Positions 5,319 through 9,345 are shown, counted from the stretch's first letter. The stretch: 64,000 nucleotides of DNA from Candidatus Nomurabacteria bacterium (GCA_016699085.1 CP064958.1:668619-732618), one strand, 5' to 3'. Numbers and translations are program-made. The notes: a model not told the origin generated them from the sequence alone.

Positions 5319-6608
5319 TTATATTCCTTTTAAAATCTTCTCTGCAACCTCGTTTCCGCTTCCTAATGCTCCTTCGACTGTTGCGGTTTCCTCTCCGGTA
5401 TATAATGCCTCACCCGCAAAGAAAACTTTGTTATCTAATGGTTCTACAAGTTTCTCATATGCATCTCCTGTGTCCATAGCGGTGTAGCTATACGCACCGA
5501 GCGCATAAGGATCTTTAGGCCAATTAACTACTTTCCAAGTTTCTATTTGATTTTTCAAAAAATCATTATCGATGTTGAACATATTACTTAGAGCCAGTAA
5601 GCCAAGATCGAGTAATTGATTTTCTAATAGCTCTTTATTCTTGTCTGCATTTGGACCAGCCATCCAGCCAACCATAATATTTTTTTCTACCGGATATTGT
5701 GTCCACCATGCAGTGAAATCATCATTGCAAAGTGCAAAGGATAATTTGGAAAGATCATGATTTGTAACATGCTTCCACCACTGACTTTTGAATTTAATAA
5801 GAAGTTTAATTGCGGGTCCGAAACCAATCTTTGCAGTAAGAGCTAATTTTTCTGAAATATCCGGAATGAATTCAATATTTTTAAGTATTGGTAATGGTAC
5901 GGTCACAATAACCTGGTCTGCTTCAAAGGATTTGTTGTCAGTTTTTACCCTGACTTTATTAGAAGTAAAATCTATCGCTGTCACACAAGCATTAAGTATG
6001 ATTTCAACGCCATTTTGCTTGCACTCTTTCTCGAGGAAGTTAAGAAGTTTACCATAACCTTCTCGTATCCAACCATCGGCATGATAGAGTTTACCGAGTA
6101 CATCTCTACGCAAATAATCAACAGATACTCTCCTGGGATCCGCAGCTTCATAGCCTTCAACCATCTTAAGAATCGAATTTCGCAGGTTTGCGTACTCTTC
6201 TGTATCGAAATACGTCTCAAGAAACTCTGCGATTGAGATATCATTTTGTACTCTCTCAAGAGTGTCTTTGAGGATTGGGTTGCTTTGGATAAATAAGGTA
6301 CGAAGAGATAACGGGCCACTTCGTGCATCCCATACTTCACCATCATGTGCTTCGGGTATAAATGTAAGTCCTGCTTCATCGATGAGAGCTTTGGTGACAG
6401 GAGCTATACCATGAACGAATTCTGCTCCGCCTTGCGCAGGGTAACCAAATGCTTCCTCTTCAAGAGGGAAGATTCTTCCACCGATTCGATCTCGTGCTTC
6501 GAGAATAGTTATTTTCTTTCCTGCCTTAGCAAGTTCCCGCGCTGCCATTAAGCCCGCTGCACCAGCCCCGATAATTAAGGCCTCTGTTTGATTTGTTGTA
6601 GTATCCAT
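5319..6608 (-). CDS. FAD-dependent amine oxidase family oxidoreductase
   Basis: N-terminal GAGAAG Rossmann dinucleotide motif, ILEARDRIGGR, flavin amine-oxidase-like length and C-terminal FAD-contact region. Confidence 0.7.
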   Translation of the reverse strand: MDTTTNQTEALIIGAGAAGLMAARELAKAGKKITILEARDRIGGRIFPLEEEAFGYPAQGGAEFVHGIAPVTKALIDEAGLTFIPEAHDGEVWDARSGPLSLRTLFIQSNPILKDTLERVQNDISIAEFLETYFDTEEYANLRNSILKMVEGYEAADPRRVSVDYLRRDVLGKLYHADGWIREGYGKLLNFLEKECKQNGVEIILNACVTAIDFTSNKVRVKTDNKSFEADQVIVTVPLPILKNIEFIPDISEKLALTAKIGFGPAIKLLIKFKSQWWKHVTNHDLSKLSFALCNDDFTAWWTQYPVEKNIMVGWMAGPNADKNKELLENQLLDLGLLALSNMFNIDNDFLKNQIETWKVVNWPKDPYALGAYSYTAMDTGDAYEKLVEPLDNKVFFAGEALYTGEETATVEGALGSGNEVAEKILKGI

Positions 6609-6672
6609 ATAGTAGACTCACTTTAGCATTTTTAGTTTCTAATAGAAATTGTGTTCTGTTATCTTATCCACA

Positions 6673-6701
6673 TTGACGGTAAACGATCGTTCACCTATAC
6701 T
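6673..6701 (+). promoter_or_regulatory. lexA promoter with LexA (Cheo-type) box
   Basis: TTGACG-17nt-TATACT; spacer contains AAACGATCGTTC (GAAC-N4-GTTC-like palindrome) at 6681-6692. Confidence 0.55.
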
Positions 6702-6707
6702 TAAGTA

Positions 6708-7268
6708 ATGCAACCAGAAGAAAAAATCCAAGATTTCTATAGAAATAAAAAGCGCATGCCATCATATGCTGAGATAGCCAATCTTTTCGGTTTCCAATCC
6801 AAGAATGCTGCCTACAAACTCGTCCGAAATCTCATCGATAAGCGAATACTCGCCAAAGACAAACAGGGCAAGCTCATACCTCTTGCATTAGAGTCATCTA
6901 TACGACTCTTGGGACTCATTGAGGCAGGATTTCCGACACCAGCTGAGGAAACACTTATCGATACGATCTCGCTCGATGAATTCCTGATCGAAAACAGGGA
7001 AGCGACATTTATGTTACGAGTCAAAGGTGACTCTATGTATGATGCCGGTATCCGAGAAGGTGATATGGTTTTGGTCGAACGGACAACAACAGCCAAGACT
7101 GGCGCGATCGTGATTGCCGAAGTCGATGGTGCGTGGACGATGAAGTATTTGCGCAAACAGGGAATGTACTTCTACCTCGAGCCGGCCAATAAAAAGTACA
7201 AGCCGATTTTCCCAAAAGAATCACTGAAGATCGCAGCGGTGGTGAAAGCGATAATTAGGAAGTATTAA
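6708..7268 (+). CDS. lexA: SOS repressor LexA (S24 peptidase)
   Basis: N-terminal wHTH; C-terminal VKGDSM...GDMVLV...K catalytic Ser-Lys dyad layout. Confidence 0.85.
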   Translation: MQPEEKIQDFYRNKKRMPSYAEIANLFGFQSKNAAYKLVRNLIDKRILAKDKQGKLIPLALESSIRLLGLIEAGFPTPAEETLIDTISLDEFLIENREATFMLRVKGDSMYDAGIREGDMVLVERTTTAKTGAIVIAEVDGAWTMKYLRKQGMYFYLEPANKKYKPIFPKESLKIAAVVKAIIRKY

Positions 7269-7290
7269 CCCGCCTATAATTTTTCTAAAT

Positions 7291-7554
7291 ATGCATTATG
7301 TTTATATTTTACAAAGCAAGAAAGATCGAGATTTATACACTGGCTGCACTAAAGATTTAAAGGAAAGGATGAATCTACATAATGCTGGCAAAGTACCATC
7401 AACAAAATTACGTAGACCATTTATGCTTATTCATTACGAAGCTTTTATAAATAAAACTGATACATTTGCCAGAGAACAGTGGTTAAAAACTGGTTGGGGT
7501 AGAAACCATTTACGAAAAGTTTTATTCAATTATTTAAAAAATTATGGCGGGTAA
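7291..7554 (+). CDS. GIY-YIG nuclease family protein
   Basis: 87 aa; YVYIL..LYTGCT..RMNLHN..G motif of GIY-YIG/Slx1-like small nucleases. Confidence 0.75.
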   Translation: MHYVYILQSKKDRDLYTGCTKDLKERMNLHNAGKVPSTKLRRPFMLIHYEAFINKTDTFAREQWLKTGWGRNHLRKVLFNYLKNYGG

Positions 7555-8806
7555 ATCACTCATCCTTCACCTTGATGGCGATGCATTCTTTGTTGCCTGT
7601 GAGATGGCGCAATTTCCAGCACTTCGTGGTAAACCAGTCGTCGTTGGTGAAGAGCGAGGTATAGCTGTTGCCTTAAACTATGAAGCCAAGGCGCTCGGTA
7701 TTACGAGAGGTATGCCAATATACAAAATCAAGCGATTCTTCAAAGAGGTCTACATTTTGCCATCACACTTTGAACTCTACGAAGCCTACAATCAAAAAAT
7801 GTTAGCAGTCTTACGCAGGTTTGCCGCTCAAGTCGAAGAGTACAGTATTGATGAATGTTTTTGTCTTCTTTCAGATGCACAGGCAAATCTTCATGGCGGC
7901 TGGATTCCCTATGTGACTACGATCAAACAGGTTTTGCAGGAAGAGCTCGGTATTACGTTCTCGTTTGGTTTAGGAAATACCAAAGTCTTGGCTAAGGTTG
8001 CATCAAAGTATCACAAGCCTGATGGATTGACCTACATTGCACAAGGTGAGGAAGAGCAGTATCTGACTAATGTCCCAATCGGCAACGTATGGGGTATTGG
8101 TTATCGCACAGCACCAAAACTTTTAGAGCGGGGGATTAAGACAGCTCTGGATTTTGCGAAACTTTCACAAGCATATATAGAAGAGCATTTCTCCTTACCG
8201 TTCCAAGAGCTTTGGCATGAGCTCAATGGCGTGAGAATATATGACGTGCATGGTGGTTTAGATGAATTACCCAAATCACTTCAAGCAACCAGAACATTTA
8301 CTCCTGCATCATCTGATCCTATCCGTATCCATGCTGAATTATCTAAAAATATCGAAACCGCTTGTACGCGTATGCGACGATTTCATTTGGCAACGAGTCG
8401 GGTATCAGTCTTTGTTAAAACGAGTGAATTTAAGTATCGCAGTATGGAAATTGGATTCGTTAGTTCTACCGTTGATCCGTCGGCTATACTTTTGGAAGTG
8501 GATAAAATATTTGCAAGCTTGTTAAGGAAAAATGAGCAGTATAGAGCAACAGGTATTACACTCTCATCACTGGTGCCGGAGCGGGGAATGCAGCAAGACC
8601 TCTTTGGCGGACATGAAATAATGAAAGAAAAATCACTCTTATTGCATTCGATAGATGAGATCAGCAAACGATATAGCACTAATGTTATCTTTCTGGCATC
8701 GAGTCTCTCAGTTATCAAGGCCAATAAAGAAAAAAGTACTATTCGGCGTCTGACTGATCCATTTGTTTTTGGATTACCATTTCCGTACTTAGGAGAAGTG
8801 CTGTAA
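7544..8806 (+). CDS. dinB: Y-family DNA polymerase IV
   Basis: LHLDGDAFFVACE and SIDECF catalytic acidic residues; palm, fingers and little-finger domain order. Confidence 0.85.
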   Translation: MAGKSLILHLDGDAFFVACEMAQFPALRGKPVVVGEERGIAVALNYEAKALGITRGMPIYKIKRFFKEVYILPSHFELYEAYNQKMLAVLRRFAAQVEEYSIDECFCLLSDAQANLHGGWIPYVTTIKQVLQEELGITFSFGLGNTKVLAKVASKYHKPDGLTYIAQGEEEQYLTNVPIGNVWGIGYRTAPKLLERGIKTALDFAKLSQAYIEEHFSLPFQELWHELNGVRIYDVHGGLDELPKSLQATRTFTPASSDPIRIHAELSKNIETACTRMRRFHLATSRVSVFVKTSEFKYRSMEIGFVSSTVDPSAILLEVDKIFASLLRKNEQYRATGITLSSLVPERGMQQDLFGGHEIMKEKSLLLHSIDEISKRYSTNVIFLASSLSVIKANKEKSTIRRLTDPFVFGLPFPYLGEVL

Positions 8807-8897
8807 CGATGTGTGGTATACTCAAGAAAATGGTAACTCGTTAGTACTGATCGTGTGTTAGTACCAATAAAAGCAATTATTAATTTACATTAAGAGT

Positions 8898-9281
8898 ATG
8901 ATGATATTTATTGTAGGAAGAATACTATTAGGAGGTTATTTTATCTATAGCGGCATCAATCATTTTTTAGAGCACAAAGGCATGGTTGGCTATAGCAAAT
9001 CAAAAGGTGTACCGATGGCAGAGATCGCAGTACCAGCAACAGGCATCATGCTTGTTTTTGGAGGACTAGCGATAGTATTGGGTACCTTCGTTTCGATTGG
9101 TATGTGGATATTAATTATATTTCTAGTAATTACTAGCTTTGCTATGCATCAATTTTGGAAAATAAAAGATCCTATGGCTCAAATGCCCGAGCGCATAAAT
9201 TTCCTAAAAAATATGGCACTTGTTGGTGCGCTCCTTATGCTATTAGCACTCCCATTGCCGTGGGTGTATGCAATACTTTAA
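8898..9281 (+). CDS. DoxX family membrane protein
   Basis: 127 aa, 4 TM, GGYFIYSGINHF motif typical of DoxX. Confidence 0.7.
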   Translation: MMIFIVGRILLGGYFIYSGINHFLEHKGMVGYSKSKGVPMAEIAVPATGIMLVFGGLAIVLGTFVSIGMWILIIFLVITSFAMHQFWKIKDPMAQMPERINFLKNMALVGALLMLLALPLPWVYAIL

Positions 9282-9294
9282 GCTTTATAAAATA

Positions 9295-9329
9295 CAGAAA
9301 AATCCCAGCTGTTAGCTGGGATTTTTCTG
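9295..9329 (+). terminator. rho-independent terminator
   Basis: CAGAAAAATCCCAGC-tgtta-GCTGGGATTTTTCTG hairpin with T-run. Confidence 0.75.
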
Positions 9330-9345
9330 TATTTTATGGTATAGT

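Follow-up and report, generated by a model that had tools for sequence, protein, structure and literature searches.

The stretch of DNA analysed here, referred to as the window, comprises 64,000 nucleotides of a Candidatus Nomurabacteria bacterium (GCA_016699085.1, CP064958.1:668619-732618), with positions counted from its first letter. Its segment 6673-8806 contains a gene for a LexA repressor, a short open reading frame (ORF) for a GIY-YIG nuclease and a gene for a DinB-like Y-family DNA polymerase, all encoded on the plus strand behind a promoter that carries a LexA box. The outer two genes constitute an SOS operon typical of Patescibacteria. The ORF between them is probably a later insertion, namely a selfish cassette of approximately 290 bp that is bounded by inverted repeats. 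The features of the locus are:

6673-6701, plus strand: lexA promoter with a -35 hexamer TTGACG (6673-6678), a 17-nt spacer and a -10 hexamer TATACT (6696-6701), located from the sequence and by a promoter scan
6680-6693, no strand: LexA box TAAACGATCGTTCA, situated wholly within the promoter spacer and one base off the phylum consensus TGAAC-N4-GTTCA
6708-7268, plus strand: lexA, 186 aa (Peptidase_S24, PF00717, E = 1e-27)
7264-7284, no strand: left (5') arm ATTAACCCGCCTATAATTTTT of a 21-nt inverted repeat, beginning at the lexA stop codon
7269-7555, plus strand: inserted cassette of 287 bp, absent from L008, L173 and L174, delimited by BLAST breakpoints
7291-7554, plus strand: GIY-YIG ORF, 87 aa (Pfam PF01541, E = 6e-14), without a Shine-Dalgarno sequence of its own
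7536-7556, no strand: right (3') arm AAAAAATTATGGCGGGTAAAT, comprising the last GIY-YIG codons and the stop codon and containing the dinB start codon
7544-8806, plus strand: dinB-like Y-family polymerase gene, 420 aa (IMS, PF00817, E = 1.6e-39; IMS_C, PF11799, E = 9.5e-15; IMS_HHH)

The original prediction described a promoter TTGACG-17-TATACT whose spacer holds a palindromic box one base off the Gram-positive consensus GAAC-N4-GTTC, and both elements were recovered. The promoter scan yields 10 of 12 consensus matches at 6673-6701. The 12-mer core of the box (AAACGATCGTTC, 6681-6692) is one base away from GAAC-N4-GTTC, and the palindrome of its inner 10-mer (AACGATCGTT) is perfect. Within the window the box is not significant by itself, as 17 GAAC-N4-GTTC sites with at most one mismatch compare with 20.4 expected; its significance derives from conservation across orthologous lexA promoters. 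LexA loci were fetched from 80 species-level genomes and 79 lexA upstream regions were scored. The motif AAC-N4-GTT is found in 43 of the 79 orthologous promoters, as compared to 7 of 310 control windows that were taken from these loci. The sites are mostly located between the -35 and -10 hexamers, with 30 of the 43 being 23-30 nt ahead of the ATG (peak at 25-28 nt). Their consensus is GTGAAC-G(A/T)TC-GTTCAC. The window box deviates from it at one position, an A for G in the left arm that also occurs in 5 of the 43 sites, and the box of L008 differs from that of the window in the central N4 alone (GATC to GTTC). No other convincing box was detected in the window, and neither recA nor uvr genes are located there. 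A definition of the regulon from the window itself was discarded, as no matching site lies in a convincing repair-gene promoter. The -10 hexamer ends 6 nt ahead of the lexA ATG and no Shine-Dalgarno sequence precedes this codon; the lexA mRNA is therefore probably leaderless. The complete leaderless layout (TTGNNN-box-TANNNT-4-9 nt-ATG) is found in 25 of the 79 orthologous promoters. A putative palindromic operator thus lies in the promoter of lexA itself, consistent with autoregulation.

The encoded LexA scores 115.1 against the TIGR00498 LexA equivalog model (cutoff 110.95). Its residues 7-169 align with residues 15-179 of Escherichia coli LexA, including the DNA-binding domain (helices 2-3); the Pfam family LexA_DNA_bind was not reported for this protein at E <= 0.01. 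All 17 LexA orthologues compared have the Ala73-Gly74 cleavage site and the Ser109/Lys146 dyad without exception, such that the protein combines the winged-helix DNA-binding domain of a LexA repressor with the Ala-Gly and Ser-Lys residues of the S24 family. We note that the C-terminal domain also scores above the NCBIfam cutoff for the UmuD subfamily (111.8 versus 110). It is conceivable, as pure speculation, that the fragment released by LexA cleavage has an accessory role like that of UmuD. The polymerase aligns over its full length with a solved DNA polymerase IV (Pol IV) structure (7yll), with the catalytic residues D11, D13, D103 and E104 in place, and it possesses the palm and fingers Asp/Asp/Glu set as well as the little finger of a DinB protein. 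Its best NCBIfam Pol IV score of 190.3 bits does not reach the equivalog cutoff of 399, and for this reason the protein is denoted as DinB-like rather than as a strict equivalog. Domain matches and alignments hence agree with the gene content originally proposed (lexA, an 87-aa GIY-YIG protein and a Y-family polymerase with intact catalytic residues), as does the tight spacing, with an overlap of 11 nt (7544-7554) between the GIY-YIG ORF and dinB.

The association of lexA and dinB extends across the phylum. Of the 80 species loci, 54 have dinB downstream of lexA in the same orientation. Where the junction is uninterrupted, a distance of typically 1-5 nt separates the stop codon of lexA from the start codon of dinB, or the two overlap (TAAATG, TGATATG, ATGA), and DinB starts approximately 10-15 residues ahead of its ILHxDGD motif. 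These data support lexA-dinB as a conserved, putatively LexA-autoregulated core SOS operon of Patescibacteria that is ordinary for the phylum, and the predicted unit of lexA and a DinB-like polymerase behind a Gram-positive-type box is supported accordingly by its conserved architecture. We treat this SOS part as known in kind. With the SOS systems of Gram-positive bacteria and Patescibacteria the locus has in common a winged-helix and S24 LexA, a GAAC-N4-GTTC-type box in the lexA promoter, and a translesion polymerase, which is part of the regulon there and is represented here by the lexA-linked dinB. It differs in the substituted base of the left box arm, in the implied leaderless mRNA, and in the stop-to-start junction by which lexA and dinB are joined in most species. 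The SOS network of Patescibacteria was reportedly the subject of a comparative study by Sanchez-Osuna, Barbe and Erill in 2017, which is cited in PMC8565304 (reference 9).

A related arrangement is known from umuDC and from the streptococcal HdiR-UmuC cassettes, in which a self-cleaving S24 protein is followed by a Y-family polymerase. The likeness consists in an S24 protein directly upstream of, and translationally linked to, the polymerase. In contrast to these systems, the upstream protein of the window is a complete LexA, which includes a DNA-binding domain and scores above the LexA equivalog cutoff, and the polymerase scores best with Pol IV models rather than with UmuC.

The GIY-YIG ORF departs from this conserved arrangement in several respects. 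Its GC content is 30.7% (22.7% at third codon positions), as compared to 44.6% for lexA and 42.3% for dinB. The 21-nt terminal inverted repeats that flank it are missing from the empty sites of L008 and L173. The right arm of the window, as well as that of L011, carries the variant TTATGG in place of the TTTAGG found elsewhere, which creates the dinB start codon. As a consequence, the N-terminus of DinB in the window (MAGK) is encoded by the right arm of the cassette, and the 10-11 extra N-terminal codons of the native gene are gone. The new ATG lies 11 nt inside the GIY-YIG ORF and is not preceded by a Shine-Dalgarno sequence. Since the native start has been lost and the new one has no Shine-Dalgarno sequence, DinB probably relies on translational coupling to the nuclease ORF. 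The region between lexA and dinB in the window contains no terminator. The sole promoter-like match in this region (7356-7383, 9/12) lies inside the GIY-YIG ORF, and such matches are fewer than chance gives. By virtue of its insertion position, rather than by membership of a conserved regulon, the ORF is very probably co-transcribed from the LexA-controlled promoter and hence damage-induced in this genome. An intron or a ribozyme was ruled out, as Rfam yields no match in 6400-9000 and 264 of the 287 bp are ORF.

Comparison with close relatives reveals how recent this arrangement is. Seven members make up the cluster of LexA proteins that share at least 90% identity with that of the window, and five lineages were examined. 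The cassette occurs in all genomes with an identical LexA (L168-L171) and, within this cluster, only in these. No trace of it exists in L008, L173 and L174, where lexA is directly followed by a dinB gene of 430-431 aa. The closest relative, L172 (approximately 91-92% nucleotide identity), likewise has a native-type dinB start; the N-terminus of DinB reads MKNIS... in this relative (again 430-431 aa) and MQTLK... in L173, L174 and L008. However, L172 retains a left arm (TCCGCCTATAATTTTTT) right after the lexA stop codon, without ORF or right arm, which we read as a deletion footprint. Where the window has 287 bp, the cassette-free relatives have a spacer of approximately 58-65 bp and the first dinB codons. 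Across the 80 species loci, the GIY-YIG ORF is located between lexA and dinB in a single case (L011). These comparisons show that the ancestral operon did not contain the ORF and point to its entry right after the lexA stop codon in recent ancestry. A test for recent horizontal transfer based on synonymous sites was abandoned, because fourfold-degenerate sites of both lexA and the GIY-YIG gene are saturated between the window and L011 or L004 (identity of approximately 0.39-0.42).

Other genes occupy the same gap in other Patescibacteria. These are IS200-like Y1 transposases (in two species), a 23S rRNA intervening-sequence protein, a BrnT toxin pair and two ORFs of unknown function; the loci are L043:6771-7544, L070:5237-5956, L065:6612-6956, L069:6821-7334, L023:6558-7376 and L017:6549-6923. 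These cases suggest that the lexA-dinB junction may be a recurrent landing site that tolerates or favours selfish genes.

The protein itself consists of a minimal GIY-YIG domain: the Tyr, Tyr, Arg, His/Asn and Glu residues are present and there is no additional domain. Among 32 homologues Y5, G18, R26 and Y49 are invariant, and Y3, Y16, H30, N31 and E50 are conserved in at least 90%. A profile of these homologues matches only UPF0213 proteins in the PDB, namely BH0048 (1zg2, E = 3.6e-9) and EF2693 (1ywl). The AlphaFold model (pLDDT, the predicted local distance difference test, of 93.6) retrieves 1zg2 at rank 1 and Slx1 chains at ranks 2-10 (E = 2e-3 to 1e-2). The best match to a Slx1 nuclease domain, the eukaryotic 7cq3, has a TM-score of 0.69 with a root-mean-square deviation of 1.6 Å and 28% identity. 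For I-TevI, E is approximately 0.8, and the 50 structure matches listed do not include a UvrC chain. The predicted fold is hence Slx1/UPF0213-like and unlike that of UvrC or I-TevI, which settles the placement between Slx1/YhbQ and UvrC that had been left to be made. Comparison of coding sequences indicates a functional protein under purifying selection, because amino acid identity is approximately 70% although synonymous sites are saturated (fourfold-degenerate sites are approximately 40% identical, close to the level of unrelated sequences). The 87-aa protein has no PHROGs match and no relatives in viral contigs, and PADLOC gives no match for the LexA, GIY-YIG or DinB-like protein; on these negatives, an origin from a phage or a defence system was rejected.

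Stand-alone Slx1-like proteins of prokaryotes represent the minimal GIY-YIG form and are regarded as mostly vertically inherited cellular enzymes of unknown role (PMC1564403); the same work leaves open whether more members of the GIY-YIG family are molecular parasites. The protein of the window has the fold, the motifs and the stand-alone catalytic domain in common with Slx1/UPF0213 proteins such as YhbQ, BH0048 and EF2693. Unlike these, its gene has inverted-repeat flanks, differs in presence between relatives, has ORF-less derivatives and is found in many host contexts.

These properties emerge from a wider survey. Cassettes were gathered from 80 metagenome loci, picked solely by GIY-YIG similarity, together with the earlier loci, resulting in 78 distinct cassettes, of which 73 have enough flank for a repeat test. 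Inverted repeats are present in 51 of the 73 (mean aligned length 24 nt). The consensus of the left arm is TT(A/C)ACCCGCC-AAAATTTTT, just before the ATG, and that of the right arm is AAAAATTT-A-GGCGGGTAAA, across the last codons and the stop codon. The inner parts of the arms are wholly different between loci and match within each locus (L103, L138, L156); in L090, CCCTCC in one arm pairs with GGAGGG in the other. A downstream gene on the same strand follows 72 of the 78 cassettes, and in 51 of these 72 its start lies between -17 and +16 nt from the GIY-YIG stop codon. As the usual right arm reads GGCGGG or GGAGGG, followed by TAA and the ATG of the host gene, the cassette would normally supply the host gene with a Shine-Dalgarno-like sequence. 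Among the host genes are rpsL, genes for ABC ATPases and numerous others; lexA is not a neighbour in any of the 80 GIY-selected loci.

The same arms also bound short elements of 38-110 nt that contain no ORF (two in L110, the others in L163, L114, L123, L152, L157 and L103), resembling the non-autonomous copies known as miniature inverted-repeat transposable elements (MITEs). Several of them abut the start codon of the next gene. Their positions, where mapped, are:

L110:2236-2310: ORF-less mini-element
L110:3941-4012: ORF-less mini-element
L163:509-548: ORF-less mini-element
L114:1646-1688: ORF-less mini-element
L123:2994-3035: ORF-less mini-element
L152:6359-6465: ORF-less mini-element
L157:733-838: ORF-less mini-element

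A related cassette encodes a 90-aa GIY-YIG/T5orf172-like protein and has its own inverted repeat of approximately 22 nt with different arms. In L004-L006 it occupies 321 bp exactly at the start codon of a leaderless lexA, with a 5-bp duplication (ATGAT), and it is absent in L007. The flanks of the filled and the empty site are 99-100% identical (L004:4096-4416 versus L007:1509-1518). In the genome of L004, the lexA stop codon is moreover immediately followed by an 87-aa cassette. Among the fetched loci, no filled and empty pairs were found beyond L004-L006/L007 and the window with its relatives. Five loci on metagenome contigs (L115, L119, L131, L132 and L145) harbor a GIY-YIG subfamily whose ORF starts with MW... 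and lies 1-2 kb downstream of a Y-family polymerase homologue; this homologue is distant, with 25-29% identity to the DinB of the window.

Taken together, we consider it probable that the locus is a core lexA-dinB SOS operon into which a selfish cassette of approximately 290 bp was later inserted. According to this reading, LexA dimers would occupy the (T/G)AAC-N4-GTTCA box in the promoter spacer and block RNA polymerase. Following DNA damage, RecA-stimulated self-cleavage of LexA at Ala73-Gly74 via Ser109/Lys146, as expected from knowledge of the family, would free the promoter, and a leaderless mRNA would be made from at or near the lexA ATG, as the short distance to the -10 hexamer suggests. 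The cassette, presumably a minimal Slx1/UPF0213-type nuclease gene between inverted repeats of approximately 21-24 nt, has no convincing promoter, Shine-Dalgarno sequence or separating terminator; it would ride on the host transcript and be damage-induced by position. The variant right arm would supply the dinB start, such that synthesis of DinB is coupled to translation of the nuclease ORF. Movement of the cassette may involve cleavage of its own repeat arms or of a cruciform that they form, homing through repair of breaks between the conserved flanks, or passive recombination. A more specific version, in which the unit moves autonomously as a new kind of mobile element, one of the smallest known, with a bare Slx1-like, structure-specific nuclease that recognises not a sequence but the cruciform or hairpin of its arms or of their ORF-less copies, cuts and promotes excision or copying, is put forward tentatively and is rather doubtful.

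Several observations weigh against an inserted selfish cassette. A tblastn search with the GIY-YIG protein and a search for the arm pattern detect one copy and no solo arms in the window. The filled and empty sites of the window clade differ by replacement and not by a simple insertion. Between the window and L011, the cassette and lexA have diverged to a similar extent, and cassettes are located at orthologous sites though the flanks are just 67-75% identical. In view of the orthologous sites and the similar divergence, many cassettes are long-term residents, which would also fit a domesticated function. No target-site duplication is definable for the 87-aa family, whose flanks TT(A/C)A... 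and ...TAAA are ambiguous between an extension of the repeat and a duplication. Cassettes adjoin lexA in three lineages (the window, L011 and L004-L007), a possible sign of a genuine functional link with SOS. The 87-aa catalytic domain has no evident means of specific sequence recognition. Finally, LexA binding, leaderless initiation and co-transcription are each deduced from the DNA sequence. The unit also lacks the transposase of a known class and the several copies per genome expected of a transposon: the GIY-YIG nuclease is the only ORF, and copy number appears low (approximately 1 per genome in the lexA-based sample of approximately 0.8 Mb).

The alternatives differ in the role that they assign to the nuclease and to the repeats. 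The original prediction proposed a damage-induced nuclease, and this proposal divides into two parts. Induction in the present genome very probably holds, by position, whereas a dedicated SOS nuclease is not supported by the pattern of conservation: the ORF is missing in L008, L173 and L174, a remnant of the cassette is left in L172, and the gene is absent from the site in 79 of the 80 species, such that its linkage to the LexA box is not conserved in relatives. Lack of the ORF in related genomes was among the outcomes that the prediction itself had specified as refuting it. A genuine SOS effector, a structure-specific nuclease selected for expression together with LexA and DinB and acting, for example, on stalled forks or flaps, would explain why the gene lies within the transcription unit behind the LexA box, why its product has the fold of Slx1, a nuclease of repair and recombination, and is under purifying selection, why three lineages have a cassette adjoining lexA, and why the window and L011 have in common a derived, ATG-bearing right arm that starts dinB. 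It does not explain that the same cassette precedes rpsL, ABC ATPase genes and numerous other genes, that no GIY-selected locus adjoins lexA, or that the unit is flanked by inverted repeats, exists in ORF-less copies and is aberrant in base composition. We therefore regard an SOS effector as highly improbable. A domesticated host module, no longer mobile, is also improbable, if not to that extreme. Here the stem would form between an anti-Shine-Dalgarno-like CCGCC and the GGCGG or GGAGG of the gene downstream and confer translational coupling or repression, and the protein would be a housekeeping nuclease. The Shine-Dalgarno-like sequence of the right arm, 4-7 nt before host start codons, fits such a role, as do the long-range closing stem found in both the minimum-energy and the centroid RNA fold, the retention of cassettes at orthologous sites over deep divergence and the strong conservation of the protein. 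However, mismatches between the arms show no excess of G:U-compatible over A:C pairs (19 versus 31, p = 0.12, in the wrong direction), hence no sign of selection at the RNA level. Presence and absence among close relatives with a left-arm footprint, the existence of tandem and ORF-less copies, and the fact that the host genes do without the unit in most species also argue against domestication.

The third alternative is a classical free-standing homing endonuclease of the phage T4 seg/mob type, which would cut the cassette-free lexA-dinB junction and be copied by repair, the inverted repeat being incidental or regulatory. The conserved coding segments on both sides (RKY-stop at the LexA C-terminus and ILHxDGD in DinB) are possible repair homology, the change in the window clade is a replacement of the sort that co-conversion would give, the window and L011 have the same derived junction, and the rpsL and ABC ATPase sites are occupied by cassettes of different branches, albeit in a tree of low resolution. 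The variable presence between conserved genes is that of a homing gene, but the 87-aa catalytic core has no DNA-binding domain, its fold corresponds to Slx1 rather than to I-TevI, viral contigs and PHROGs yielded no relatives, and the co-varying arms and ORF-less mini-copies are left unexplained. We consider classical homing unlikely. The Seg homing endonucleases of T4-like phages (PMC2988022) are likewise wedged between conserved co-directional genes and variably present. Unlike the window protein, which is Slx1-like, they possess DNA-binding domains and belong to the I-TevI lineage (PMC2988022), and the nuclease of the window is encoded on the chromosome of a cellular genome with inverted-repeat flanks.

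A parallel to the preferred reading, a selfish inverted-repeat cassette inside an SOS operon, is offered by MITE-type and repetitive extragenic palindromic (REP) repeats with a cognate enzyme. Examples are the units formed by REP sequences and their associated tyrosine transposases (REP-RAYT) and the Correia elements. The likeness consists in short intergenic palindromes near gene starts and in a larger form that encloses the gene of an enzyme between the arms. The differences are that the enclosed enzyme is a GIY-YIG nuclease rather than a Y1 or DDE transposase, that copy number appears low, and that no target-site duplication is defined for the 87-aa family. No description of such inverted-repeat GIY-YIG cassettes was found in the searchable literature, and this kind of element seems to be previously undescribed.

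The surroundings of the operon complete the picture. A single further feature is listed downstream of dinB:

9287-9337, no strand: perfect hairpin with a 23-bp stem and a 5-nt loop (ATAAAATACAGAAAAATCCCAGC TGTTA GCTGGGATTTTTCTGTATTTTAT), between doxX and dnaJ

The hairpin is 98% conserved in L008 and is probably a bidirectional terminator that closes the lexA-to-doxX unit. In the spacer between dinB and doxX (8807-8897), TGGTATACT at 8815-8823 resembles an extended -10 element by eye, although it is unlisted by the consensus scan; doxX may have its own promoter. Upstream, the interval between dnaK and lexA (5319-6608 in the window, minus strand) differs among close relatives and contains a flavin amine oxidase gene in the window and L168-L171, a 218-aa ORF in L172 and L173, and a Peptidase_S51 gene in L174. 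No CIRCE element was found near dnaK or dnaJ.

The SOS part of the locus adds little to what is known, other than a clean example of a Patescibacteria lexA-dinB operon in which the operator lies in the spacer of the promoter and the transcript is probably leaderless. What the cassette provides, on the other hand, is evidence, at the level of sequence, that one large Slx1-like subfamily of Patescibacteria behaves as a molecular parasite, as indicated by repeats, footprints, a filled and empty pair, and mini-copies. In the tentative version with an autonomous element, the cassette would persist in operons because it equips the downstream gene with a ribosome-binding site and a stop/start junction, and its location between lexA and dinB would tie its expression to DNA damage, that is, to times when recombination repair is active. 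It also provides a testable model in which a nuclease without a DNA-binding domain finds its target via the structure of its own repeats. In the present genome, a selfish element would have captured the translation start of a mutagenic polymerase, and the output of DinB may depend on the parasite. For annotation, it follows that small genes labelled 'GIY-YIG nuclease family protein' in operons of these genomes should not be read as contributing to the function of the operon.

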